In this document: positions 2,947-50,079 of the stretch, in pieces
How positions within the stretch are numbered: position 1 is the stretch's first letter
Layout: each line of letters starts with the position of its first letter
Notes under the pieces: generated by a model
What the model saw: only the letters and a program-made list of their open reading frames with translations
What the model was told of the DNA's origin: nothing
Database searches by the model: none
Assembly: GCA_963819815.1 (NCBI GenBank)
Contig: CAWFXL010000001.1
Location: 1,056,001 to 1,120,000 of the forward strand
DNA length: 64,000 bases
Direction of reading: 5' to 3'
From: an uncultured bacterium
Lineage (GTDB): Bacteria; Babelota; Babeliae; Babelales; Babelaceae
Made by a program: the position numbers and the translations under genes

Positions 2947-3012
2947 GAAAATTTCAATTGTTAGTCTTAGTGTACTGTAATAGTTACACATTGTCAAGAG
3001 CTGCCAGGAATT

Positions 3013-3378
3013 CTATTCTGGGTGTATTTTGAGCAATTCGACCTTAAAGCGCAAAGTCGCCTGAGGAGGTATTGCTGCTCCTGCTCCACGCGTTCCATAT
3101 GCCAATTGAGGGGGAAGAATAATGTAGCGAACTTCTCCTTCATGCATCTCAAGAAGTGTTTCATCCCACCCCTTAATAACCTGACCTACGCCAACCACAA
3201 AGGAAAAAGGACGGCTCCGATCATGGCTACTGTCAAACTTTTTACCCTGCTCACCTGCATTATCAAGCCATCCCGTATAATGAACATCTACGACATCCCC
3301 AGGAGTAGGGGTATGGTCTCCTGAGCCCTCTTTTTCAATATGATATTGAAGCCCATCAGGGCGTATGATAAATTCCGT
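3013..3378 (-). pseudogene. FKBP-type PPIase duplicate; start codon changed ATG->ACG, frame otherwise open
   Basis: Same 366-nt length as 14420..14785; begins ACG GAA TTT ATC versus ATG GAA TTT ATC; in-frame TAG just upstream. Confidence 0.75.
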
Positions 3379-3435
3379 GATTCTCCGCTGGTAATGAAAC
3401 AGGGCGCCAAACTATATGCCCTGCCTGTATGTTCC

Positions 3436-3567
3436 TTATTTAACTTTGAGAAGTTCAACCCTAAACCGAAGTGTTGAATTTGGTGGAATTTTAGCAACTG
3501 ACATCGATCCATAGGCAAGTTTAGGCGGAAGAATAATGTAGCGAGTTTCACCCTCTTTCATATCCGC
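3436..3567 (-). pseudogene. 3' fragment of FKBP-A
   Basis: [41 protein letters not shown] matches the C-terminus of 14845..15321; homology ends near 3567. Confidence 0.8.
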
Positions 3568-3938
3568 TTGGTCGGCAGGATGGAAAGGTTTTTTTGGAGA
3601 GCTAGTTGTAGGGATACTCGCAGCGGTAGTTGGCTGGTTCATCATAACGAACCCAATTCTCGGTGCAGCATCACTCACCCTCCTTCTTGCACTGTACTTC
3701 TGTGTATCAGGGCTCTTTAAAATTGCAGGAGCACTTATATATCATCTTGAGCATTGGGGTTGGCTCTTGTTTAATGGTATTGTAAGTCTTTTTAATTTTG
3801 GCTCAATGGCCAGCAGCTGCTCTGTGGGTTTTAGGTATGTTCCTAGCGATAGACTTAATCGTCAGTGGCTGGACATCAGTCATGCTTTCTCTTGCTCTAC
3901 GCAAAACATGTAAACTTGCCGGTCAAGAAACAGCATAA
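3563..3938 (+). pseudogene. HdeD/DUF308-like membrane protein, 5'-truncated and frameshifted
   Basis: Manual translation: GWKGFFGELVVGILAAVVGWFIITNPILGAASLTLLLALYFCVSGLFKI...WGWLLFNGIVSL / LILAQWPAAALWVLGMFLAIDLIVSGW...*. Confidence 0.7.
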
Positions 3939-4279: not shown

Positions 4280-4543
4280 GCCTGCTTTTTCAGAAGCATG
4301 AACCATCTGCCTTTATGTCGAATAGTTCGATCTCCGATTGTTTTTTAATACAAAAGATTGAGTTAAGATTACATCCCTCAATCGAACGATGAAGGTAGCA
4401 TCTTTCAATGGCTCTACATTAAATTTTTCATTATAGTGCTTGGTGTACTAGCTTTGTAGGAAGTAATTAGCTTCTTCAATTGTAGTAAAAGAAAAGGGGT
4501 CTTTGTTCATAGTCAGGGAGGACATTTCTTTTGCGTTCCGACA
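4280..4543 (-). mobile_element. IS1202-family (ISNCY) remnant: left end joined to a decayed transposase C-terminal fragment
   Basis: Minus strand from 4543 reads TGTCGGAACGCAAAAGAAATGTCCTCCC; peptide TTIEEANYFLQS*YTKHYNEKF..HRSIEGCNLNSIFCIKK..DRTIRHKGRWF; left boundary approximate. Confidence 0.75.
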
Positions 4544-4559
4544 ATTATTTTTGCAACCA

Positions 4560-4589
4560 TTGCTTTTTCTTTAAAATTATAAGTAAGAT
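4560..4589 (+). promoter_or_regulatory. Putative sigma70-type promoter (18-bp spacer) for the FkbM gene
   Basis: TTGCTT-N18-TAAGAT. Confidence 0.5.
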
Positions 4590-4655
4590 GAGGGTAAGAG
4601 GTCGAGCAAGCTTTTCAAGATCGAAAGGCATCAAAAATCACTAGGAGGGAAATTT

Positions 4656-5417
4656 ATGAAAAACAAAATAGTTTTATATTCTAAGCATTTAACAAAGATA
4701 CTAGCCAGTTCTTTATTGCTACTTCTAGTATGCACCGTCCAACTGACATTTAGTTCAATCGTTGACAGTAAAGCAGCTGATGAAAAATTACGAGAAATTC
4801 ATTCAAAATTAAGTATAAAGCATGGGGACTTTTCCTTGGAATATGACGAACAAAAGATGAACGTCATGTTTCTCCCAAAGGATGCGAAAGTTTTAGAAAT
4901 AGGAGGAAATATTGGCAGAGTCAGTTGTGTCACTGCCTCCATTCTAACTCACCAAGATAACTTGGTTACTTTGGAATCCCATCCGGTGTACGCGAAACAA
5001 TTGCAAGAAAATAGGGATCTTAACGGATTAAACTTCCATATTGAAGCATCTGCGCTATCAAAAGTGCCTTTAATCCAAGCGGGTTGGAATTCAATGCCAA
5101 GCGAAGTTTTATTGCCGGGCTACATTTGGGTCAAAACAATATCATTTGCTGAGCTGCAAAAGAAATACAACATCGAATTTGATACATTGGTGGCTGATTG
5201 TGAAGGTGCACTATATTACATTCTTCGAGATGATCCAGATATCCTTAAAAATATTAAATTAATCCTTATCGAAAACGACTTCCTAGAGCAAGAACATTTA
5301 GATTTTGTTCATAATCTATTCAGACAAAATGGATTTGAGGCTGTATATAGCCAGAGGTGTGAATGGTGTCGTATGTTCCCTAGTTTTGAATATTTCTTTC
5401 AAGTATGGAAGAGATAA
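4656..5417 (+). CDS. FkbM-family methyltransferase with N-terminal hydrophobic segment
   Basis: VLEIGGNIG SAM motif; LVADCEGA; ILIEND. Confidence 0.8.
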   Translation: MKNKIVLYSKHLTKILASSLLLLLVCTVQLTFSSIVDSKAADEKLREIHSKLSIKHGDFSLEYDEQKMNVMFLPKDAKVLEIGGNIGRVSCVTASILTHQDNLVTLESHPVYAKQLQENRDLNGLNFHIEASALSKVPLIQAGWNSMPSEVLLPGYIWVKTISFAELQKKYNIEFDTLVADCEGALYYILRDDPDILKNIKLILIENDFLEQEHLDFVHNLFRQNGFEAVYSQRCEWCRMFPSFEYFFQVWKR

Positions 5418-5489
5418 GCATTAACACCCGCTCTCTATAAGATTTTGTAAAGGCTTTGCGGTCAGGCATTCAACTTTGTCGATTAGCAC

Positions 5490-5519
5490 GAGGTAGCTCA
5501 CAATGGGCTACCTCTTTTT
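5490..5519 (+). terminator. Rho-independent terminator between convergent FkbM and pth genes
   Basis: GAGGTAGCTCA-CAA-TGGGCTACCTC-TTTTT. Confidence 0.65.
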
Positions 5520-5537
5520 ATTGGAATTTAGAAAGAA

Positions 5538-6071
5538 TCAATTAGGAAAAAGCTGCTCTATCATCTGAACTGCCTCGCTGGTCAAATTCTCAACAAGAGC
5601 AGGGTTCTCAAAGCGCTCCAGGACATAGTGTAAAACCTGTTCTCTGGCAACCGGCCGACCAATGCCAAACCTCAGCCGAGCAAATTCAGAAGTACCCCAT
5701 CGCTCAATAAGGGACTTAAGGCCATTGTGACCTCGTGCACTCCCTCCCGTCTTAATAGAAAGCTTTCCAAGAGGTTTTTCAAGCTCATCATGAATAACAA
5801 GAATATTCTGTGGCCCAATCCCCTTTTTCTTTAAAAAAGGCACGACATCGCCAGAGTTATTCATATACGTAAGGGGCTTTACAAGGAGTACCGGATGACC
5901 TTGAATCTGTATGGTAGCAATCTGCGTATCGGGGAAAGATTGCCAGTGGCCGCCAAATGAAGCGGCCACTGAATCTATAACTTTGAAGCCAGCATTGTGT
6001 CGGGTTTCAGCATATTTCGCATCGGGATTACCAAGTCCAATAAGAACTTTTGGCACCTGAATTTCAGTCAT
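5538..6071 (-). CDS. pth: Peptidyl-tRNA hydrolase
   Basis: IGLGNP, TRHNAGF, KPLTYMNNSG, HDEL, GHNGLKS and RLRFGIGRP motifs. Confidence 0.95.
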   Translation of the reverse strand: MTEIQVPKVLIGLGNPDAKYAETRHNAGFKVIDSVAASFGGHWQSFPDTQIATIQIQGHPVLLVKPLTYMNNSGDVVPFLKKKGIGPQNILVIHDELEKPLGKLSIKTGGSARGHNGLKSLIERWGTSEFARLRFGIGRPVAREQVLHYVLERFENPALVENLTSEAVQMIEQLFPN

Positions 6072-6124
6072 CTTCTTATTTTGAAGCTGGCCTTTTTTAT
6101 CTTTACGGTACGTAGTTAGAGTTC

Positions 6125-7083
6125 GGCGATGTCAATAATGAAATGCAACACATAGGATTTTCACATAGAAAAGATGCATTTTGAAGGCTCCAATATATTC
6201 ATTCATGCATCATCTCCTTAAAAGCCTCTGAAGCCATTTTATAATTTAGGATTGCTCTTGGCATATTGTTAAGCTTTTGAGCAGCCTCTTCAATATCTTT
6301 CTCGTTGATCTGATCATGTCTACCTTTAAGGGAAAGAAATGTCTGATAAGGCCATTGACGTTCTCTATGCTACCCTTTTGCCATGGCGCTCCTGAGTCAC
6401 AGAAATAAGTTGCTATGCCCAGTTCATTCAATAGCTCATGATCAGCAAATTCGCTACCATTGTCAAAGGTTAAACTTTTAACAGGAAGATCTGATTCTTT
6501 AATTGTATGAATCAGCCCCCATATAACAACATTAGTTGTTTTATTTGGATTCTTGGAGTTTTATCAGCTTTCCTCCTCAGACCTCTTTTTTTATGAGATC
6601 TGAGCAAGAATTTATTTAAATTGAGTCCTTTCCCTTCACTACTATAGATCCATTGATAAATAGCTTCTGCCGATATTCTTAGCCCAGAACTCTTATTATT
6701 CCGTGCTCCAGATATTGTTTGAGAAGACCAACCAATTTTAAGATGTTCAACAATATAAGCTTTCAATGCAGGATCCTTCTTAACTTTTGGCATGTTCTTA
6801 TGCTTGCGCTTAGCGGTTCTTTCTTGAGCTTCACCAGAGTATAAATAGCCTATGTGATCACTGTTTCTAGCTATCTCTCTTGAGATTGTAGATGGTGCTC
6901 GACCAAGTTCAACAGCTATTTGCCGTATCGGCTTTTGTCTACAGAGGGCTCTATAAATATGACATCTTTCATAGTACGATAGCTGAGTAAAGTTTTCCAT
7001 AATTTGCAACACTCTTTCGGTATAGAATATGACGCAAATATCATTCTATCTGAAAAGTGTTGCATTTCATATTAGACTAGGCC
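6125..7083 (-). mobile_element. IS30-family element, internally deleted
   Basis: 27-bp imperfect IRs (GGCGATGTCAATAATGAAATGCAACAC / GGCCTAGTCTAATATGAAATGCAACAC); 3-bp TTC direct repeat at 6122-6124 and 7084-7086. Confidence 0.9.
6246..7000 (-). pseudogene. IS30 transposase, split and missing part of the DDE domain
   Basis: HTH 'IAVELGRAPSTISREIARN' and 'ISAEAIYQWIY' in one piece; 'LTFDNGSEF', 'YFCDSGAPWQKGSIENVNGLIR' in another. Confidence 0.85.
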
Positions 7084-7109
7084 TTCACATCAAAGATTCC
7101 AGAGCCTCA

Positions 7110-8204
7110 TTACTTGTTACAGCTTTTAATATCAAATAAAAGCCCCTTCACATATTCGGGGTCTAGAATAATTATTTTTGCTTCTTTATCTTCTATCCCG
7201 ACACCTATTAATAAATTTTCACCAGAATGATCGAAGGTCATTGACGTACAAAATTCAACACCGACGTGGGTAAAAGTAAAGGGAAGGGAAATTTTTGTTA
7301 TGCGAAATTCTGCGTCCAGATACAAGAATCTGTGGGTATAGCTATAATTTTGAACACGCTCATGAACCACCATTAGGTATCCATTATCAAAGTCTATGGG
7401 CGCCGCAGACCCACGAGAATAAGAAAAGTCTAATTTAGGCGAATAGCTAAGAACTGTCTTGAATGTTCCATTTTCCATGTTTGGCTCTATGAGTATAAAG
7501 GGATCATATGAGTAAATAAACCTGAGCTTTTCCTGCCTAACAATGGGCATCCAATTCTTTTCGTGGCGTCTTTCTTCTGGTCCATGAAAAAGTGCTAATG
7601 TTTCAATCGTTGGTCGGGGAAAATGATCAAAAGAATTAAGTTCGCAACTAAGCCTACATACCGCTACTTTTTGTAACCAATTAGAGGATTTGATGGCTGA
7701 GCATCCCACTAACCAGTGGGAATTATCCCAATAGAATATTCTGCCATCTTCCACTTGGTAAGCTTCGTTTATATTTTTTGTAAGATGAGATGGTATCGTT
7801 ATTTCTTGCTCAGATAGGAGGTTAAAATCTTTATCATACCTGAGAAAAAAGTTCCTGATTTTCGGGGTATCTCCACTTACTATTGTACGATAATCAGGAA
7901 TCTTAAGATTTGTAACTTTGCACATAATATCATAGCCATTTGCCGTTTTTATGATCGATGGATTAAGTGGTACATAAGTTTCACTATGGCCTTCCTTAAT
8001 TAGTGGCAAGGTAAAAGTAACATCTATAATCTCTTTAGATTCTAGGTTCCTTAGTAAAGCTAGCATAGGTTGAATATATTTTTCTTTATCAGCTTTCGAA
8101 ATGCTTTTGCTTAATATAAGTTGATCAAGTTCCCTTAGAGATTCTTTTTGAGAGAATATTAAAGAACTACATAATAACTGTATGAGCATCAATAGATACA
8201 ACAT
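7110..8204 (-). CDS. Signal-peptide beta-propeller glycosidase-like protein (paralog 1)
   Basis: NPSII, VEDGR, EKNW, RGSAAP, VHE, YTHRF and GVEFC motifs typical of GH43/GH130-like propellers. Confidence 0.65.
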   Translation of the reverse strand: MLYLLMLIQLLCSSLIFSQKESLRELDQLILSKSISKADKEKYIQPMLALLRNLESKEIIDVTFTLPLIKEGHSETYVPLNPSIIKTANGYDIMCKVTNLKIPDYRTIVSGDTPKIRNFFLRYDKDFNLLSEQEITIPSHLTKNINEAYQVEDGRIFYWDNSHWLVGCSAIKSSNWLQKVAVCRLSCELNSFDHFPRPTIETLALFHGPEERRHEKNWMPIVRQEKLRFIYSYDPFILIEPNMENGTFKTVLSYSPKLDFSYSRGSAAPIDFDNGYLMVVHERVQNYSYTHRFLYLDAEFRITKISLPFTFTHVGVEFCTSMTFDHSGENLLIGVGIEDKEAKIIILDPEYVKGLLFDIKSCNK

Positions 8205-8406
8205 GACCTCTCCCTTTTTATATTTTCCGCCCATATGCTTATTATAAAATACTTAGATAGATATTTGCAATAATTTTCTAATGAAGATAAAAGCTCACAT
8301 TGAGCACTAACATTTATTCATCTAAATTATAGACTTATCGATATTAAATTTAGTAATTTTAAAATATATGACTACTATCACTAATTTTTCAAGAAGGAGG
8401 GGTTCA

Positions 8407-9291
8407 ATGTTTTCACTATCAAAATCTTATCGATTTCTTTATCTGAGTATGGCCATATTGAGTTCGCTTTCACAGGCTGAAGAAAGTCAATTGAATATGA
8501 CCGTAACTCACCCTATCGAATTTGTAATTTTGATCGCATCATACAATAATGAGCAATTTGCTGTTGAGAATCTGCGATCTGCTTGTTTCCAAAAATCATC
8601 AAGACCTTACGAGGTTATCTATGTGAATGATTGTTCTACTGATAATACTCATGCAGTCGTAGAAGCCTACGTTAAAGAACATGGACTTGAAAACCGAGTA
8701 ACCATTATTAATAACGAAATAAATGTTGGCCAAGTTGGAAACTATTACAATATCATACATAGCTTCATACCTGACCATAAAATTGTTGTTTTACTTGATG
8801 GTGATGATAAATTAGCCCATGATGAGGTATTGTCTGTTCTTGAAAAACACTATTCAAACCCAAATACATGGATGACCCATGGATCACGCATAATATTTCC
8901 TGAACAAGGTATGGATAATGTTCCTGAGTCCCAACCATATCCAAGTGATGTAATTTTGGAGAGATTATTTAGAAAAAGTGAATGGGTAAAAGGAGCTCAT
9001 TTAATATCTTTCAAAGCTTGTTTATACAAAAAGATTCGAAAAGAAGATCTCATGTATCAAGGGAAATTCTTAAAAGTGGCGGGCGATGTGGCATTTCTAA
9101 TGCCTATATTTGAAATGTGCTCGCCCTACAAAGGCAATAAAAAAAGCCACATTCAATTTATTCCAGAGGTTCTCTATCTCTATCGAGTAAATAATCCCAT
9201 AAGTGACTTTAGAATATATAAAGGTGCACAGAGTGAAATGAACGGGTATATAAGAGGCTTGCAACCCTATGAAAGCCTAGAATCACTGTAA
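8407..9291 (+). CDS. GT2 glycosyltransferase (paralog 2)
   Basis: IASYNN, VNDCSTD, LDGDD; GGAGG RBS before ATG 8407. Confidence 0.85.
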   Translation: MFSLSKSYRFLYLSMAILSSLSQAEESQLNMTVTHPIEFVILIASYNNEQFAVENLRSACFQKSSRPYEVIYVNDCSTDNTHAVVEAYVKEHGLENRVTIINNEINVGQVGNYYNIIHSFIPDHKIVVLLDGDDKLAHDEVLSVLEKHYSNPNTWMTHGSRIIFPEQGMDNVPESQPYPSDVILERLFRKSEWVKGAHLISFKACLYKKIRKEDLMYQGKFLKVAGDVAFLMPIFEMCSPYKGNKKSHIQFIPEVLYLYRVNNPISDFRIYKGAQSEMNGYIRGLQPYESLESL

Positions 9292-9448
9292 ATGGCAATT
9301 CGTCAGCTACTGCACGTTGTGGCAATTTTTTTGAAAAAAAATAAAAAAAATTGCCACAACGTGCACTGCCAAAAATCGTTTACTTTTTTCTAAAAGACCG
9401 AAAAGCCTATTTAAGTGAGTAGTTGGGTTGTAATTTAGAGACAAGGCA

Positions 9449-9538
9449 TTTTGGAAATAGACTAAATGCACATTAATTAGAGGTAAGTGCACGCTCTTTT
9501 CAGTAAAAGTTGCTCATTGGGGTCTGAGTCTAAAGTAG
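9449..9538. repeat. ~90-bp diverged direct repeat (partner ~10905..10992)
   Basis: Shared AGACTAAATGCACA...CTCTTTTCAGTAA...TGCTCA...CTGA.TCTAAAGT. Confidence 0.7.
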
Positions 9539-9642
9539 CCTAAAAATTTGCTCTAACAATATTAAACTCTTGAAATTTAATCATTGTTTTTGCTAACATG
9601 AAGTTAGAAGCTTTTTTATTATATAAAACAGGGAGAACAATT

Positions 9643-10353
9643 ATGATTTATATCTACTTATTACTGAGCTGTTTTTTGGGAAATCTCACTGGACAGATTT
9701 TTTGCGAACGGGGAAAGCTTGAAACTAATGATAGTAAGATGGAAGAGATTTTTACCGAAGTTTACGAAAAAAATACATGGTGGAGCTCTGAATCAAGATC
9801 TGGTACGGGATCAACTTTAGCAAATACCGTATTTCTTAGAGAAGAGCTTGTGCAGCTTCTTTCTACCTTTCAAGTTTCGTCAATGCTTGATATTCCCTGT
9901 GGTGATTTCAATTGGATGAAAGCTGTAGACTTAAAAAGTTTGAAGTATATCGGTGCTGACCTGGTAAAACAAATAGTTATCGAAAACAATATAAGATTCC
10001 AGACAGATACAATAAAGTTTATGCACTTGAATGCATGTAAGGATACTCTACCAAGAGTTGATCTTATTTTTTGTAGAGACATGCTGCAGCATATGTCTTT
10101 AAAAGATATAAAGCTTGCACTTGCCAATTTTAAGAAGAGTGGTTCAAAATATTTATTAACCTCAACTTTTCCGCATGTAGACCTCTGGTATGATCTTGAA
10201 ACTGGGTTCGATTGCAGAGAAATAAATTTCCGAAATTCTCCATTCAATTTTCCAGCACCTCTTTACCTTATAGTTGAGAATAGCATTGATGTTCGCGGAA
10301 AATGTATGGGACTCTGGTTGCTGAAAGACATTCCTGATGAAGCTTTGTCGTGA
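9643..10353 (+). CDS. Class I SAM-dependent methyltransferase with signal-like N-terminus
   Basis: SRSGTGS, MLDIPCGDFNWM, YIGADLV and DLIFCRD motifs. Confidence 0.8.
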   Translation: MIYIYLLLSCFLGNLTGQIFCERGKLETNDSKMEEIFTEVYEKNTWWSSESRSGTGSTLANTVFLREELVQLLSTFQVSSMLDIPCGDFNWMKAVDLKSLKYIGADLVKQIVIENNIRFQTDTIKFMHLNACKDTLPRVDLIFCRDMLQHMSLKDIKLALANFKKSGSKYLLTSTFPHVDLWYDLETGFDCREINFRNSPFNFPAPLYLIVENSIDVRGKCMGLWLLKDIPDEALS

Positions 10354-11075
10354 AACTTCAAGGTCCCTTGTAGCTTTATCTATCAGCTCCTTTGCTTAAG
10401 AAATACAAGCATGCTTTTTTCAGACTTACATCAACCCATCATTTAAGACGGCAGAACTATTACAGAAAAAGTTTCTGAATGATATGGGCATTAAGAAATA
10501 TACGGCAGCTCATCATAAAGCGGGTTTTAACCTGTTAGATTTGGAAGGCATTAACATCGATGTTATTCTGCTTTCTCAATTTCACCCGGAACAAGAGTTT
10601 ACGAACCAAATGCCCTCACTGCTAAACCATGAGAATTGTAGACATCTTGAATCAGTTCTTCAGCTTGAGTAATCTCGTTTGTTTGGCCAGAACTTGCAGT
10701 GGTTTTCCAACAGCATATAATATGCTGCATGTGTTTTCGTTGAATACCCACACTAAATACAACATTTTTCTACTAGCAATCCAATCTACATTATGATAAC
10801 TATGCACAATAATCTCTTCTGCACGTATTTCAAGAGACACATTGAAATGTTTATTACTTTTACTTAACCCCCGTAAAGCTCAAAGCTATTCTATAAACAT
10901 AACGTTTTGGCAACAGACTAAATGCACACTCATTAGTGTGGGCATATACTCTTTTCAGTAAGAACTGCTCACTTGGGCCTGATTCTAAAGTGAGAGCTCA
11001 GATAGCCTTACCTTTTTGCATCTTAATTTAAAACAAAGTCTTGCTTGGATTGCTTGTACAATTTGCAAATTGGTT

Positions 11076-12338
11076 CTATTTCACAATATCACAATATTTA
11101 TCGTAGAGCTCTTTTGAATTCGTCATCAGATAGTTCTCACCAATAATATTCTCAGGCCCGAGAATAACTTTTTTAGGAATCACCAACATGTGAAACTTAT
11201 TTTTCAAGTCCTTCCACAGATATCTTTTTACCCATTCTCTTCCCTGCTCCGCACTTTTCTTATACTCAGAATAATTAGAGTAGACTTTCCTTAGTTCTTT
11301 GCGGACATCCTCAATACTACAGTGAAAATTGTAACCGCAATCTCCAAAATCAAGACTCCCATACGTAGCTTTGTTTGGTATATTAGAGCAAACGCCAGAC
11401 ACATAACCACTATTGCAAATAGTAGCATGTGCAGTATTATTACTAATGATTGTAGGGATACCAAGAGCCAGGGCTTCGCGTGGAGTAATTGAAAATCCTT
11501 CACCCTTTGAGACAAGAACATAGCAATCAAAGCTTTTCATTAATTCTATGTACTTTTCATGCGAAAGTGACTTATTGCTAAGTATTATTGAAGGTATCGA
11601 ATTAGGTTCAACCTTACTCTTTACTGCTTCAAAATAGTAGCCCCCGTTGCCATGGAGAACCAACTCCACACTATCATCCCCAGCAAATTCAGCAAGAAAA
11701 GCATCTATTAATAAATGATGGTTCTTTCTATCTATAAATGTGCTACAGCATCCAAATCTAAATGGTTTATTTGGGGCTTTTTTGATCGGTTGTTGGAGAA
11801 AATCTTCGAGATAAATTCCGTGTGGTAAAACAAAAATCGGTATTGTAACGCCACTCATTACATAAGTCTCAACGAGCCATTCATCAGGTACGATCACTGC
11901 ATCAAAGTTCTCATTAAAATTGGCAACCCATTTTTTTGGTATTCGTGTGCTCTCTAACATTGAGTAAGCAAGTTTAATATGGCTTTTTATAGCATTTACT
12001 TCATCATAGCTGCTCCAGGCAAGGTACCAATACAAAAGTGCTACATTACCAGCTGTTATATCATCATTTTGTCTCCCAAGGTCAAAATGATTGATTTTAA
12101 GATCATTTTTTAAGATATCTGCAATCCCAATGCCTATGCTTCCTAGTCCAGTATCAGATTGTGCTACCCCTATTAACGATAGATCAATAGGTGACGGCGT
12201 AAATGATTTAACTTGGCCAAGTTCACGTTTATTGTTTGGCACCATGAATTTCTGCCCTTTTCTATCACCTTCCTCACAAGATATTTCGTGGGTAGATACC
12301 AGCAATAAACAACCAATTAGCATTCTGCAAAACAGCAT
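11076..12338 (-). CDS. GT4 (GT-B) glycosyltransferase, tandem paralog A
   Basis: RKN motif; 'DCYVLVSKGEGFSITPREALALGIP' EX7E motif. Confidence 0.85.
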   Translation of the reverse strand: MLFCRMLIGCLLLVSTHEISCEEGDRKGQKFMVPNNKRELGQVKSFTPSPIDLSLIGVAQSDTGLGSIGIGIADILKNDLKINHFDLGRQNDDITAGNVALLYWYLAWSSYDEVNAIKSHIKLAYSMLESTRIPKKWVANFNENFDAVIVPDEWLVETYVMSGVTIPIFVLPHGIYLEDFLQQPIKKAPNKPFRFGCCSTFIDRKNHHLLIDAFLAEFAGDDSVELVLHGNGGYYFEAVKSKVEPNSIPSIILSNKSLSHEKYIELMKSFDCYVLVSKGEGFSITPREALALGIPTIISNNTAHATICNSGYVSGVCSNIPNKATYGSLDFGDCGYNFHCSIEDVRKELRKVYSNYSEYKKSAEQGREWVKRYLWKDLKNKFHMLVIPKKVILGPENIIGENYLMTNSKELYDKYCDIVK

Positions 12339-12401
12339 GATTAATCCTTCCTTTCTTAAGAGTCTTGGTTAAGACTTCATTTTTCAAACCTAAAAATAGC
12401 T

Positions 12402-13679
12402 CTAAACCTCATGTCCCATAGATGCAATGTTGCAATATTTATTATAAAGCTCTCTAGAATTAGTCATCAAAAAATCTTCTCCAATAATATTTTCGTTTCC
12501 AAGGATAACCTCTTTAGGTTTCACCAACATGAGAAACTTGTTTTTCATGTTTTCCCAAGTATATTGTTTTACCCACTCTCTTCCCTCTACCGCAATTTTT
12601 TTGTGCTCAGCGTAATTAGAATAGACTTTCCTCAGTTCTTTACGAACGGCAGCAATATTACAATTAAAGTTGTCACCGCAATCTCCGAGATTATACGAGG
12701 AGGGATACTCAGCTTTATTCCGTATATTTGAGGGAACTCCAAATACATATCCACTATTACAAATTGTAATGTGTCCAGTATTATTACTAAGGATCGTAGG
12801 AGTTCCTAGTGCGAGCTCCTGACGAGGCGTAATTGAATACCCTTCCCCCTTTGAGAGAAGGACATAACAATCAATACTTTTCATAAACTCTATATACTCC
12901 TTACGTGTTAGCGTATTATGATTACTAATTTTTATTGATGGCACCGAAGATGCCTTAACCTTTCGTAGGGTCTCTTCAAGGTATTTTCCACCACCATCGC
13001 CATGAAGCACTAACTCAACGTTATGGTCTCCGGCAAATTCAGCTTGGAATGCATCAATTAATAGATGCTGATTCTTTCTATCGCAAAATGTAGCACATGA
13101 ACCAAATCTAAATGGCTTTGCATGAGTCGCCCTAATAGGCTCATTTAGAAAATCTTCGAGATAAATTCCATGGGGTAGTACAAAAATCGGTACAGTTACT
13201 CCACATGTTAAATATACATCCTTAAGCCACTCATCAGGTATGATCACAGCATCAAAGTTCTTATTGAAATTATTTACCCACATTTCAGGTATTTTTGTAC
13301 TCTCTAACATAGAATAAGCAAGTCTAACATAACTTTTTACAGAGTTTACCCTATTGCATTCTTCGACGTTGTATATTGGAAAATAAAGCAAAGCTACATT
13401 ACCTGGGGTTTTATCAGTATTTTGTAATATTTCTACTATATTTGATGGGATATTGTCATAAATAAAAATTCGGCCTATGTGCGAATAGTAATTGATTTTT
13501 ATATCATCTTTCAATACATCTATAATCCCTACCCCTATGCTTCCTAACCCAGTATTAGACTCCGCCAGTCCAATCAATGTTAAATCAATAGGAGAAGGTA
13601 CAAACGCATGTATTGGAAATGATAGGATAATAAAATAGTGCACCTTATTAATGCCCCGAAGGAACCGGTGGAATAACAT
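12402..13679 (-). CDS. GT4 (GT-B) glycosyltransferase, tandem paralog B
   Basis: RKN motif; 'DCYVLLSKGEGYSITPRQELALGTP'; colinear with paralog A. Confidence 0.85.
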   Translation of the reverse strand: MLFHRFLRGINKVHYFIILSFPIHAFVPSPIDLTLIGLAESNTGLGSIGVGIIDVLKDDIKINYYSHIGRIFIYDNIPSNIVEILQNTDKTPGNVALLYFPIYNVEECNRVNSVKSYVRLAYSMLESTKIPEMWVNNFNKNFDAVIIPDEWLKDVYLTCGVTVPIFVLPHGIYLEDFLNEPIRATHAKPFRFGSCATFCDRKNQHLLIDAFQAEFAGDHNVELVLHGDGGGKYLEETLRKVKASSVPSIKISNHNTLTRKEYIEFMKSIDCYVLLSKGEGYSITPRQELALGTPTILSNNTGHITICNSGYVFGVPSNIRNKAEYPSSYNLGDCGDNFNCNIAAVRKELRKVYSNYAEHKKIAVEGREWVKQYTWENMKNKFLMLVKPKEVILGNENIIGEDFLMTNSRELYNKYCNIASMGHEV

Positions 13680-13775
13680 TCACTCTCCCATGAATATTGG
13701 TTGCTGCCGTATTTAGACCCAGTTATATACAATTAAGGACTCCGACAATAAACTACTATCTATTTGTCTTTCTAA

Positions 13776-13805
13776 ATACTAATAATAATAAGATTATAAA
13801 TGCAA
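13776..13805 (-). promoter_or_regulatory. Putative promoter (18-bp spacer) for the GT4 pair
   Basis: TTGCAT-N18-TAGTAT on the minus strand. Confidence 0.55.
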
Positions 13806-13821
13806 GAGTTTCATACATCTC

Positions 13822-14140
13822 TGTCGGAACGCAATTAGAATGTCCTCTTTTTTTAAGTTTGTATTCTGGTTTCTCTATTTCTACGTAGTTAAGTCATTGG
13901 TTGCCTACCTCAAGTGATATTGTCCCATCGAATGCTATGCTTATCGAGATAGAAGATCCCTTCTGTAGCTCTTTTTTCATAAGCAAGAACCATGTGCCCA
14001 TATAGCGAATAGTTCGACTTCCGTTTATTTTACGTTTTCTTTAATACGAAAGATGGAGTTAAGATTAATTCCTTCAATGGAGCGATGAGGGTTAACATTT
14101 TCAATGGCACTACAGTGAATTTTTCATTATAAGGCCTTAT
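13822..14140 (-). mobile_element. IS1202-family remnant: right end plus decayed transposase C-terminus
   Basis: TGTCGGAACGCAATTAGAATGTCCTC at 13822; peptide YNEKF..PHRSIEGINLNSIFRIKE homologous to 4300-4440. Confidence 0.75.
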
Positions 14141-14340: not shown

Positions 14341-14419
14341 ACCCGCAACAAGGTAAAGTCTATGCCTTTTTATTATTCGTAAAGCAACAGTTACACATCG
14401 TCAAGTTCTGCCGGAAATT

Positions 14420-14785
14420 TTATTCTGGGTGTATTTTGAGCAATTCGACCTTAAAGCGCAAAGTCGCCTGAGGAGGTATTGCTGCTCCTGCTCCACGTGC
14501 TCCATAGGCCAACTGTGGGGGAAGAATAATGTACCGAATTTCTCCTTCATGCATCTCAAGAAGTGTTTCATCCCACCCCTTAATAACCTGGCCTACTCCA
14601 ACTACAAAAGAAAAGGGACGGCCCCGATCATGGCTACTGTCAAACTTTTTACCCTGCTCCCCTGCATTATCAAGCCATCCCGTATAATGAACGTCTACGA
14701 CGTCGCCAGGAGTAGGAGTATGGTCTCCTGAGCCCTCTTTTTCAATATGATACTGAAGCCCATCAGGGCGAGTGATAAATTCCAT
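14420..14785 (-). CDS. FKBP-type peptidyl-prolyl isomerase (FKBP-B)
   Basis: VHYTGWL, KFDSS, VIKGWD and LAYG motifs. Confidence 0.92.
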
Positions 14786-14844
14786 GGTTCTCCGCTGGTA
14801 ATGCAAACAGGGCATCATAGTTTGATGCCCTGTATACGTGCTCT

Positions 14845-15321
14845 TTATTTAACTTTGAGAAGTTCAACTCTAAACCGAAGTGTTGAATTTGGTGGAATTT
14901 TAGCAACTGACATCGATCCATAGGCAAGTTGAGGAGGAAGAATAATGTAGCGAACTTCACCCTCTTTCATTTCGGCCACGGTTATATCCCACCCAGGAAT
15001 AACGGTACCGGTACCTACCTTAAACGAAAATGGTTGACCCCTATCGACGCTACTGTCAAACTTGGTTCCCTCTAGCCCATTAACATCAAGCCATCCGGTA
15101 TAGTGCACGTCTACTTGACCACCTTTGACAGGTTTACGCCCTTCACCATGTTTCTCAATGCGATACTTGATTCCTTCAGGACTTGTTATAAAGTCCTCGG
15201 CCGTGGCAGGTTCAGCAACTTTTTCCGAAGTAGGCTCATTCTTTTTAGTAATGGCCCAAAGCGTCAGTCCAACGCCACCAAGTAAGGCTACTCCCAGAAG
15301 AACTAAAGTATTTCTTTTCAT
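14845..15321 (-). CDS. FKBP-type peptidyl-prolyl isomerase with N-terminal membrane anchor (FKBP-A)
   Basis: Hydrophobic N-terminus; VHYTGWL, KFDSS, VIPGWD and IPPNSTL motifs. Confidence 0.92.
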
Positions 15322-47044: not shown

Positions 47045-47367
47045 CGGTACAAAAATAGGTGAGAGCTCAAGATCTTTGTGGAAACTGAATACCTGCCATG
47101 AAGTTTTCAGAAGCATCACCTCTCTTCAAGCAACCCGGGGGGGTTGGCCATTCCAAAAGATCTAGTTGCATATGAGCTTCTTCACTCATATAGTTCACCT
47201 TATCCAGCCACGCAGAATTTGTTGGATTCAGCACATAGTTAGATAAAAAGATGACTCATTCTAATTGTGTTTCGTTATTTTCAGCGACCTTCTATTGATT
47301 ACTTATTCCTATTACGGTTAAAATAAAATTAGCGATTAGGAAATAATTTATTTTGGGAGAGGGGATC

Positions 47368-48336
47368 ATGAAGTTTTCACGATATTACACTATTGAACTT
47401 TTATTTGGAACGTTGCTATATCTACCAATCCTATTTTCGAACGGGAAGCTTGGATTGCCATTAAATGAGACACCTAAAAGAGAAGCTATCTTGAGATATA
47501 TCCCAGACACCAAAAAGCCAATATTTAACAGCCTTTCTTCTAAAAAAAGCATGTGGACCTCTGGTAAGGAAGTATCTGTATCAAAATTTGGGGTGCCAAA
47601 AATAATTCATCAAATATGGATTGGAAAAAGTCTGCCATCAATCTTAGGTAAATATATGTCAACATTTAGCATGATGAATGGATATTACTATAAACTATGG
47701 GATAATGCAGATCTTCATGAAATAAACTTTCCCAAAACATGGAAATATATCGAACCATTATTGCTAGATTCAAAAATTGTCTATGCTAAAATTGCTGACT
47801 TGATGAGATTAGAAATTTTGTATCATCATGGTGGAATATACGTTGATGCTACCATGCAGGCTTTGCAAAGCATGGATGTAATATTAGAGAGTATCGATAC
47901 TCCCTTTATGATAAGTCAGGAGGATTACTGTGGATTAGACTGCGTAGGTCAAGAAGATAAACCCTATATTTCAAGTGGATTTATTGTGAGCATTCCGGGC
48001 TACAAAGTTCTTGAAAGATTGCTTTCAGAAGAATATCTATCACAAATCGATTTTTCTGAAAAAGCAAATCTTGCCACAGGACCCTATTATGTAAGAACAG
48101 GAATTAAAGAAGCTTCTGAGGTTACTGTGTTGCCCACAGATATGATTTATCCGATTCCTTTTGCAGATCGGAACGTTGATGAATTGTATTCTGACTGGTT
48201 TTCATTTAAAGCACGCCAAGGATTTGAGCAGTATAATTATTTTGACACTCCATGCTATATAAAAATTCCCTGCCAGGCTTTTCCTCATGCAGTTACACTC
48301 AGAAACTGGAAGCTTGGTGGAAGTTGGTTGAAATAA
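47368..48336 (+). CDS. GT32 (OCH1-like DXD) glycosyltransferase
   Basis: VPKIIHQIWIG; ADLMRLEILYHHGGIYVD; TGP. Confidence 0.82.
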   Translation: MKFSRYYTIELLFGTLLYLPILFSNGKLGLPLNETPKREAILRYIPDTKKPIFNSLSSKKSMWTSGKEVSVSKFGVPKIIHQIWIGKSLPSILGKYMSTFSMMNGYYYKLWDNADLHEINFPKTWKYIEPLLLDSKIVYAKIADLMRLEILYHHGGIYVDATMQALQSMDVILESIDTPFMISQEDYCGLDCVGQEDKPYISSGFIVSIPGYKVLERLLSEEYLSQIDFSEKANLATGPYYVRTGIKEASEVTVLPTDMIYPIPFADRNVDELYSDWFSFKARQGFEQYNYFDTPCYIKIPCQAFPHAVTLRNWKLGGSWLK

Positions 48337-48424
48337 TGACCCTTTTGAGCCCCCTAGATTTTTCCAAGCGCAAGCCCTGTTTATAGAGAAAAAGGACATT
48401 TACACAAAAATTTCTTACAAACCC

Positions 48425-49127
48425 TGTGACTGCAAAGCGAAAATGTCCCCTATTCTGCAAAGTAGAAATGTCCTCCCAACTATTGAAAACAGGCCCCCTC
48501 TTTGGGCAGATTCTGGTATCAACTTAACAAGTCCAGAATTGCAAGAAGGGGCAAAATGGAGAAACTATTTACTATGAAGCAGATATACATGTGATCGAAA
48601 TTATTAAGCAAGTGGCATTGGGAGCTCTAACACGAAAGAAGGCTGCTCAATTGTCAGGCTATGGCTTGCGTCAGATAAGCCGTAACACAGAAGAAGGCCC
48701 TAAGAGACTTATACGCGGCAACGCTGACAAGCCCAGTAACAATAAAACATCGGGCGAAGTAGAAGAAAGTATTGTTGAGATTATGTCAACTAAACTGGAA
48801 GGCTTTGATCCGACTCATGCGACTGAGATGCTTAAGCGGGAATATAACATTACTGCAAATAGAGAAACGTAAGGCAAATTATGATCCGGCATCAACTGTC
48901 CAGTTGTATACGGGTTGCGAAGTAACCGTCTGTGCTTTGATGGAACTCTATGGCTAACTTATAGTAAAAAAAGACTGTATTGTAAAGAGATAACTGAACC
49001 TAAAAAAACAGTCCGAAAGGAGCAAGTCAAAGTGGTGAGCAACATAATGTACAGGCCGCCTAAAAACCACTCCTGGCGAGAACCGGGTGTACTGAAATAA
49101 ATGGGACATTTCTACTTTGCTTTAACA
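48425..49127 (+). mobile_element. Internally deleted IS1202-family element (703 bp) with 16-bp target duplication
   Basis: TGT...ACA termini; IR core GCAAAGTAGAAATGTCC (twice at left, once at right); AATTTCTTACAAACCC at 48409-48424 and 49128-49143; transposase N-terminus (AAQLSG..RQ..FDPTHATE..RET) joined to C-terminus (PPKNHSWR). Confidence 0.9.
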
Positions 49128-49143
49128 AATTTCTTACAAACCC

Positions 49144-49173
49144 TTGAAGTATGAGAAAATATTATGCTAACTT
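49144..49173 (+). promoter_or_regulatory. Putative extended -10 promoter (18-bp spacer)
   Basis: TTGAAG-N15-TGC-TAACTT. Confidence 0.55.
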
Positions 49174-49215
49174 AACATTAAATACAAAACGGAATCTCAA
49201 AAAGGGAGAGAGTCG

Positions 49216-50079
49216 ATGAATTGTTCAAAAAAATTCTTGTTGGGAATACAACTAATTCTTCTAGGTAGTATTATCGAGAGTAATGAAATTAAGAGCAATT
49301 GCGAATTTGCAATTCTGATTCCATCATACAATAATGCAAAATTTTATGAAGAAAACCTACTTTCTGCATGTTGGCAAAAATCTACAAATCCTTACCATAT
49401 ATATTATATCAATGACTGCTCGACTGACGATACGGGCAAGCTTGTCGAAGGATTTGTTAAAAAACACCAGCTAGAAAACATTGTTACAATTATACATAAC
49501 CCAGAAAATATGGGTGCTGGTGCTAATACTTACAATACGATTCATAATTATATCTCAAACCATAAAATAGTCGTAATACTTGATGGAGATGATAAATTTG
49601 CGCACAATAATGTTCTTTTAACATTAGAGAAGTACTATAAAGATCCAGACCTTTGGCTAACTCATGGTAGAAGTACAGCATTCGGGAACGGTTATGATTA
49701 TACCCTTGGCAGTGCGATTCCAAAGGATCTTCTTCAAACACATCTCATTCGGAAACATGTCATGCCACAAATGACAGAACATCTCAGAACATTTAAAGCA
49801 GGACTATTTAAAAAGATAAATAAGGAATACTTCTATTATAATGGCAAGTTTATGAGGACTACAGCTGATACCGCTTTTATGCTTGCCATGTTGGAAATGT
49901 GTTGTCCTAAAGATGGTGCTATTGGTAAAAATCACGTTGCGTTCATAGATGAAGTTCTTTACTACTATCGCCGTAATAATCCAATAAGTGTTTACATGAT
50001 TAAACCAGCTCTACAGATGGAAATTGACGCCTATCTTAGAACATTAGAGCCTTTTCAGCCACTTGAACAGCTCGATTGA
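49216..50079 (+). CDS. GT2 glycosyltransferase (paralog 8)
   Basis: IPSYNN, INDCSTD, LDGDD and HLRTFK motifs. Confidence 0.85.
   Translation: MNCSKKFLLGIQLILLGSIIESNEIKSNCEFAILIPSYNNAKFYEENLLSACWQKSTNPYHIYYINDCSTDDTGKLVEGFVKKHQLENIVTIIHNPENMGAGANTYNTIHNYISNHKIVVILDGDDKFAHNNVLLTLEKYYKDPDLWLTHGRSTAFGNGYDYTLGSAIPKDLLQTHLIRKHVMPQMTEHLRTFKAGLFKKINKEYFYYNGKFMRTTADTAFMLAMLEMCCPKDGAIGKNHVAFIDEVLYYYRRNNPISVYMIKPALQMEIDAYLRTLEPFQPLEQLD

Follow-up and report, generated by a model that had tools for sequence, protein, structure and literature searches.

Insertion sequences (IS) of the IS1202 family have been sorted into three classes according to the length of the duplication that they leave at the target, 5-6, 15-17 or 27-28 bp (Siguier et al., bioRxiv 10.1101/2022.12.17.520857), and in the available text of that preprint targeting, of xrs sites, is given only for the 5-bp group. 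The ISTde1 subgroup of the same authors forms part of the long target-site duplication (TSD) 'IS1202 group' of Harmer et al. (PMC10132070), whose accessible text reports no targets found for the long-duplication group and proposes contact with XerC at dif for the short-duplication cousins. The same authors liken the family to Tn7 in its TGT/ACA ends, its several binding sites per end and its TnsB-like domain order. Insertion beside promoters is known from TnGBS and ISLre2/ISKra4, elements with Mutator-like (p-MULT) transposases, which insert in an oriented manner at a distance of 15-17 bp from the -35 box of sigma-A promoters, on its upstream side, and leave the promoter intact; on the model of Ty3, these elements have been suggested to contact the polymerase initiation complex (Guerillot et al. 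2014, PMC3942029). Here, we analyse three IS1202-family relics (copies 1, 2 and 3) in a 64,000-nucleotide stretch of DNA from an uncultured Babelaceae bacterium (contig CAWFXL010000001.1, positions 1,056,001 to 1,120,000; hereafter the window), together with relatives from other genomes. The explanation that best accounts for the evidence as a whole, to which we give a probability of roughly 85%, is that elements of the ISTde1-type clade integrate at the edge of promoters and that the window copies are relics of this clade. As far as predicted promoters allow, we are highly confident of the targeting rule itself, namely that the long-duplication IS1202 clade inserts at the upstream edge of sigma-70-type promoters.

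Copy 1 (48425-49127, plus strand) is an internally deleted element of 703 bp bounded by TGT...ACA tips, TGTGACTGCAAAGCGAAAATGTCC at the left and, reverse-complemented, TGTTAAAGCAAAGTAGAAATGTCC at the right. Its left and right inverted repeats (IRL, 48425-48450; IRR, 49102-49127) agree at 21 of 30 positions, and both element tips are flanked by a perfect 16-bp duplication, AATTTCTTACAAACCC, at 48409-48424 and 49128-49143. AATGTCC stands at positions 18-24 of both ends, and the single tips of copies 2 and 3 are alike in this. The inner block of the IRL, GCAAAGCGAAAATGTCC, is followed about 14 nt further inward by a second copy, GCAAAGTAGAAATGTCC (approximately 48456-48474, the two together at 48432-48474), so that copy 1 possesses the extra subterminal block regarded as a second transposase-binding site by Harmer et al. 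At 48528-48872 (plus strand) lies the relic of a transposase N-terminus, comprising its helix-turn-helix part with stop codons around it, which matches positions 1-95 of the 368 in NCBIfam profile NF033594 (ISNCY family transposase; E=1.8e-12, 47 bits, cut-off 250); by tblastn, 35 related transposases match the same fragment. The window elements resemble the ISTde1 subgroup as published in their TGT/ACA tips, their imperfect inverted repeats of 24-26 bp, the conserved inner block and its repetition near the end and, for copy 1, a duplication of 16 bp (15-17 in ISTde1); their transposase fragments are compatible with an ISNCY-type enzyme of the family but fall short of the curated score. All three are old and dead, have lost the catalytic core, and most probably descend from long-duplication (ISTde1-type) elements of the IS1202 family.

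A wide spread over phyla and an ISNCY-type DDE transposase are common to the ISTde1 subgroup and the elements analysed here, but a promoter-edge target, as reported here, is absent from the description of that subgroup in the text available. The ISAba32/ISAjo2 subgroup shares with the long-duplication elements an order of tip, duplication and recognised site, with the IRL on the side of the site; it differs in that its duplication measures 5-6 bp and its site is the XerC arm of a dif-like site, whereas the window elements have no dif-like site and copy 1 has a 16-bp duplication. TnGBS, ISLre2 and ISKra4, in the published account, belong to an unrelated transposase superfamily, the elements here having a TnsB/Mu-like DDE enzyme; their duplications of 8-9 bp stop short of the -35 box, it is their right inverted repeat that lies near the promoter, and they come mostly from Firmicutes, whereas the phyla represented among the elements here are many and varied. 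The features that mark p-MULT elements in that account (a Mutator-like transposase, duplications of 8-9 bp, a terminal C in the repeats) are not those of the window relics, which match the ISNCY model and have 16 bp and TGT tips. Finally, in contrast to Tn7, in which TnsB works with the target selectors TnsC/D/E, those relatives that have an intact transposase carry a single gene and encode no TnsA/C/D/E partners, and the choice of target must therefore lie in the transposase or in a host factor.

The promoter-side junctions of the three copies have one arrangement, as an earlier note made from the letters of the window had described. Copy 1 ends at 49127, and the first base after its right-hand duplication, on the IRR side, begins TTGAAG (49144-49149), which is followed by 18 nt and TAACTT (49168-49173). 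From the tip of copy 2 at 4543, 16 bp (4544-4559), presumably the surviving copy of a duplication of which no second copy exists, lead to TTGCTT (4560-4565), 18 nt and TAAGAT (4584-4589). From the tip of copy 3 at 13822, 16 bp (13806-13821) lead along the minus strand to TTGCAT (13805-13800), 18 nt and TAGTAT (13781-13776). These promoter-like sites (49144-49173 and 4560-4589, plus strand; 13776-13805, minus strand) were said to point away from the elements into intact genes, and the open reading frames (ORFs) and Pfam matches bear this out: copy 1 is followed by a family-2 glycosyltransferase gene (49216-50079, plus strand; PF00535, E=3e-16) with its start codon at 49216, copy 2 by an ORF weakly resembling FkbM methyltransferases (4656-5417, plus strand; PF05050, E=0.0028, below cut-off), and copy 3 by a group-1 (GT4) glycosyltransferase gene (12402-13679, minus strand; PF00534, E=3.5e-10).

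Weight-matrix scores at offset 16 came to 7.2, 7.5 and 7.0 bits for copies 1, 2 and 3 respectively, while the other offsets from 13 to 19 in the same three flanks gave at most 2.2 bits. Because scores of 7.0-7.5 bits are rare at random places in the genome (0.14-0.19% of 200,000 positions; 0.17% at the level of copy 1), three of three sites at one offset lies far beyond chance. The coincidence in the window is real, although a sequence match of this kind, in the window alone, lacks the power to prove working promoters. As the window promoters are weak, the case rests on the relatives.

Relatives were collected from sister genomes, from a scan of species genomes (79 loci) and from a scan of metagenomes (80 loci); L-numbers denote loci of this set. 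In total, 175 loci with a transposase match were reduced to 137 with paired ends enclosing the match, 38 without paired ends (mostly cut contigs) being dropped, and to 113 non-redundant loci after a strict end filter, which 22 failed, and the removal of two duplicates. Intact relatives above the curated cut-off of NF033594 were present in 6 of 41 sister genomes, among them six intact elements with duplications of 15-18 bp. The 27-28-bp subgroup, which comprises streptococcal elements, had no member among the 159 loci from the two scans. A perfect duplication of 14-18 bp defined a validated set of 34 elements, which includes copy 1 of the window and falls into 21 transposase clusters at 90% identity.

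In this validated set the trinucleotide TTG begins exactly at the first base past the duplication, on at least one side, in 22 of 34 elements (p=9e-22), and TT does so in 28 of 34. The background frequency of TTG in the same flanks is 2.3% per position, which amounts to an expectation of 4.5% per element, and the enrichment of TTG just beyond the duplication, which the earlier note had proposed as a test, holds for elements outside the window. A -35/-10 site of at least 3 bits that starts 13-18 nt from the tip was found in 32 of 34 elements, as compared with 3-4 of 34 for control zones of equal width. Furthermore, the site keeps step with the duplication, the difference between its offset and the duplication length being zero in 30 of 40 positive flanks, and its spacers are of 16 nt (13 flanks), 17 nt (21) or 18 nt (6).

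We next consider the distribution of such sites over the family. In a FastTree phylogeny of 112 transposases, one clade of 28 rows (support 99) holds all 13 elements with duplications of 5-6 bp, and its sister clade of 82 rows holds every long-duplication element except L044. Among elements for which both flanks were available, 54 of 68 in the long-duplication clade were promoter-positive, as against 2 of 24 in the short-duplication clade (p=7e-10). By flank, the long clade scored 69 of 150 against 40 of 446 control zones (p=2e-21); in the short clade 7 of 149 control zones were positive. A dif-like core 5 bp from the IRL served as a positive control for the pipeline and was recovered in the short clade in 16 of 25 IRL flanks and 1 of 26 IRR flanks, whereas at the published place the long clade had it in 0 of 76 IRL and 0 of 74 IRR flanks. 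Flanks that match dif or xrs sites, the outcome which had been named as speaking against promoter targeting, were therefore seen in none of the 150 long-clade flanks. Of the window relics, copy 3 matches only L003, a long-clade member, by tblastn; the N-terminal relic of copy 1 matches members of both clades at 28-35% identity.

The family is marked by a DDE triad and a Q seven residues past the E, and among the transposases the corresponding residues D150, D211, E256 and Q263 (L031 numbering) are at least 95% conserved in 108 aligned relatives. When we searched 80 long-clade and 28 short-clade sequences for clade-specific runs (at least three columns present in more than 60% of one clade and less than 30% of the other), the only one found was an 11-residue C-terminal stretch of the short clade. 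The exceptional locus L044 (765-2267, a Photobacterium record) is a short-clade element lying 16 bp from the IRR of a second copy, in the order IRR, 16 bp, IRL; these 16 bp occur once more beyond the element, which gives a tandem or junction-like arrangement.

The end of the element that faces the promoter is not chosen evenly. In the long clade the promoter lay beside the IRL only in 36 elements, beside the IRR only in 9 and beside both in 9 (36 vs 9, p=7e-5). The earlier note's observation that both ends are used thus holds, but with a strong bias towards the IRL; in the window the promoter-side tips of copies 1 and 3 are IRRs and that of copy 2 is read as an IRL, as judged by transposase fragment matches. 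Inverted-repeat symmetry, the cause of orientation reported for ISLre2, was tried and rejected (mean 21.9 vs 22.0 of 30, p=0.8). Two asymmetries of the ends were seen: in 26 of 36 IRL-proximal elements the IRR tip reads TGTCAA, which places a TTGACA, facing outward, at the extreme end of the element, and the IRL carries an inward TGaTAATGT that is absent from the IRR. These could serve in a junction promoter or in read-out.

As for what the target consists of, no position within the duplication showed a sequence signal in the 69 positive flanks, a C at -1 (29 of 69) being the sole trend. The AAC-Y-M motif noted earlier just before TTG can be seen in the window, but is not general, since these 69 related flanks have no such signal. 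Downstream of the TTG there is more to be found. A -10-like hexamer follows at 16-18 nt in 42 of 59 cases at the target offset, compared with 231 of 4387 elsewhere in the flanks and 46 of 542 outside long ORFs. In addition, the G of an extended -10 'TG', which lies outside the scoring matrix, was present in 36 of 69 positive flanks against a background of 22% (p=4e-8). Because both -10 boxes and the extended -10 TG are enriched, the target appears to be a whole promoter rather than TTG alone.

In the relatives, the promoter-like sites lead into genuine genes. Pfam matches were obtained for 27 of 51 first downstream ORFs, several starting near the ORF N-terminus, and the products are ordinary housekeeping ones (release factor, tRNA synthetase, L28, UvrB, CoaBC, AroQ and others), with no sign among these 51 of a preference for highly expressed genes. 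The tip is followed after 62-81 nt by a tRNA gene in L004, L155 and L035. Among positive flanks 48 of 59, and among negative flanks 38 of 56, had an ORF of 60 amino acids or more beginning within 150 nt; the presence of a downstream ORF was set aside as too weak a discriminator.

As the comparison of relatives shows, two staggered cuts are made, one directly at the 5' edge of the -35 hexamer and the second 14-18 bp upstream of the first. Repair then leaves a duplication that fills the gap between the element tip and the -35 box, with the core promoter and its gene intact. In the usual orientation the IRL, and hence the start of the transposase gene, lies beside the promoter and the gene reads away from it; the promoter-distal end, usually the IRR, would by the standard geometry of transposition be the one that attacks the phosphate next to the -35 box. 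The transposase probably recognises a promoter as such, and would most likely do so by docking on promoter-bound RNA polymerase holoenzyme, through sigma region 4 or the alpha C-terminal domains, where a class II activator would sit; the earlier note had likewise suggested a role for RNA polymerase. Recognition of the holoenzyme is suggested by the -10 and TG signals, by -35 boxes of average conservation and by the parallel with the XerC proposal for the short-duplication cousins; we regard recognition via polymerase rather than via DNA alone as evenly balanced.

A more speculative extension, which we put forward tentatively and would not yet favour, is that the whole IS1202 family chooses its targets by docking its single TnsB-like transposase on a host protein already bound to DNA, this being XerC at dif for the 5-bp group and sigma-70 polymerase at promoters for the 15-17-bp group. 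The near cut would then be made at the edge of the site of the host protein, and the far cut would be separated from it by at least one turn of the helix. In the literature, the duplication classes of 5-6, 15-17 and 27-28 bp differ by about 11 bp, that is, by one turn of the helix, and such steps suggest a single cutting geometry in which the far cut is moved by whole turns.

An alternative to docking on polymerase is that the transposase reads the -35 hexamer directly as DNA, the -10 boxes being seen only because TTGACA-like sites that have one are real promoters in places where an insertion is tolerated and survives. The TGTCAA tip of the IRR (TTGACA on the other strand) described above in 26 of 36 IRL-proximal elements would fit a protein that already handles this hexamer, as would the placing of the cut, to the base, beside it, and a DNA motif would easily explain a rule common to very different phyla. 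On the other hand, -10 hexamers follow the target TTGs far more often (42 of 59) than those outside long ORFs (46 of 542), where insertions should also be tolerable, and the extended -10 TG is enriched too; the -35 boxes are conserved no better than in average promoters, with TTG in 22 of 34; four loci with TGTTAG at both tips (L108, L155, L157 and L174) still lie at promoters; and the hexamer stands in mirror position relative to the cut when compared with its place at the IRR tip. On balance, we think direct reading of this kind unlikely, if still worth keeping in view. End mimicry, in which the -35 box is taken for a copy of the IRR tip, was set aside, both because the hexamer is mirrored and because elements without that tip are at promoters all the same.

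Several points weigh against promoter-edge integration as the explanation. The scoring matrix was composed of textbook sigma-70 frequencies, and the 3-bit threshold and the 13-18-nt zone were chosen after the data had been seen; the test of TTG at the first base is independent of matrix, threshold and zone. A duplication is missing from 88 of the 137 paired-end loci, many of them metagenome contigs, which may be chimeric joins with the two flanks taken from different copies, and several elements share one genome and hence one host. Of the 68 long-clade elements, 14 have no promoter-like site at the expected place, L020 and L029 being among them in spite of perfect duplications. In two others the duplication runs into the -35 box, by 3 bp in L035 and by 2 bp in L080. 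Part of the enrichment of -10 boxes could come from the survival of insertions rather than from recognition. All the sites used are predicted promoters. In the window, both copies of the duplication are kept only in copy 1, and none of the three sites is strong, each agreeing with the consensus at 7 of 12 positions; a stricter consensus scan (at least 9 of 12) lists none of them. It gives instead, for copy 2, TTTGCA-N16-TAAAAT (4550-4577) and, for copy 3, ATGAAA-N18-TATTAT (13814-13785), both beginning 6-7 nt away from the respective tip.

The last of these points would favour the notion that the three sites are not promoters and that AT-rich intergenic DNA has produced the pattern in the window by coincidence, all the more as shuffled sequence yields 1.7-2.3 promoter-like hits per 500-1000 bases. 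Nevertheless, all three flanks have their site of 7.0-7.5 bits at one and the same offset, few random positions score so high (0.14-0.19%), and the same register recurs in 22 of the 34 validated elements (33 from other genomes and copy 1), which makes coincidence very improbable. Least credible of all is a near-random insertion without targeting, after which only copies upstream of promoters persist because they spare genes: intergenic insertions are indeed expected to persist, and the window relics are old and have intact genes on both sides, but selection cannot make the duplication end, in 30 of 40 positive flanks, precisely where the -35 box begins with its first T, nor does it explain the 8-fold excess over control zones a few bases away, the 36:9 orientation bias or the mere 2 of 24 in the short clade, which is under the same selection.

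We return to the window for the details of the copies and their surroundings. Copy 2 (4286-4543, minus strand; identified by sequence and by its match to NF033594) has the tip TGTCGGAACGCAAAAGAAATGTCC on the minus strand at 4543, and its transposase remnant corresponds to positions 260-312 of the profile (4331-4486, minus strand, E=1.9e-4). The tip is most simply read as the IRL beside a large internal deletion; the other end of this copy was not found. Copy 3 (13822-14131, minus strand; identified by sequence and tblastn) has the tip TGTCGGAACGCAATTAGAATGTCC, an IRR, at 13822 and a C-terminal relic of the transposase at 14099-13867 (minus strand), which aligns by tblastn with residues 296-376 of the 421 in the L003 transposase (E=7e-10). 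The two copies are 79% identical between 4286-4435 and 13973-14131. In the whole genome (1.64 Mb, two contigs), a variable-gap pattern search returned only these four ends, and no other copy of copy 1 was found. A search for an empty target site, with 47700-49900 compared against 10 genomes of the genus, found only glycosyltransferase paralogues of 64-88% identity and no syntenic site.

A number of further features adjoin the copies. At 48393-48419 the sequence GGACATTT...TTACA resembles a further element end, its tip lying inside the duplication of copy 1 and 5 bp before the -35-like box; either an older insertion at this promoter has left a trace here, or the resemblance is due to chance. 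The ORF just upstream of copy 1 (47353-48336) is a DXD glycosyltransferase, which has a sub-threshold Pfam match to the catalytic glycosyltransferase domain of TcdA/TcdB (E=2.5e-4, 20.9 bits, cut-off 23.6) and clearer matches to Gly_transf_sug and Caps_synth. A 9.3-kb block (4544-13821) of genes for glycosyltransferases and methyltransferases is enclosed by copies 2 and 3, which have the same orientation, so that the whole resembles a decayed composite transposon. Beside them are duplicated FKBP-type isomerase genes (2979-3567 and 14386-14976, 91% identical), the left copy of which is decayed. A frame resembling a small membrane protein at 3542-3913 is 82% identical to DNA about 2.3-2.6 kb before the start of the window, and appears to be another local duplication beside copy 2.

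Outside the window, an ISNCY-type element is widespread on enterobacterial plasmids, with at least 5000 records, and is represented here by loci L192 (2406-3820), L024, L103, L104, L106 and L107. In L024, L104 and L106 its IRL lies 15-16 bp from TTGCCT-N17-TATCCT or TAATCT, and in L192 a TTGCCT-type site stands beside a small DUF5431 gene; neither a right end nor a duplication was found in the loci examined.

With this finding, a large group of insertion sequences that extends over many phyla, and is described without a target in the accessible text of the two family papers, is given one. The earlier note's belief that promoter targeting had gone undescribed for this family agrees with an open full-text search that returned no report, subscription papers, TnPedia and preprint supplements lying outside its range. 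Judged from sequence, a known family here shows a target specificity that is new for it and that converges on the habit of the promoter-hunting elements already known. It adds a second, evolutionarily independent case in which a DDE transposase homes to the upstream edge of promoters, so that two solutions to promoter finding can now be compared. In uncultured bacteria, the rule can be used to predict where promoters lie next to such elements; it also accounts for the rarity with which they disrupt genes, and points to a one-protein system for promoter-proximal insertion. In the window itself, gene clusters for sugar modification would have the starts of their transcription units marked by the three relics. 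If docking on host proteins were to prove true of the whole family, the 27-28-bp group should have a protein-defined target too, and nature would have supplied, in elements of one gene, devices of broad portability that place DNA at -36 of active promoters.

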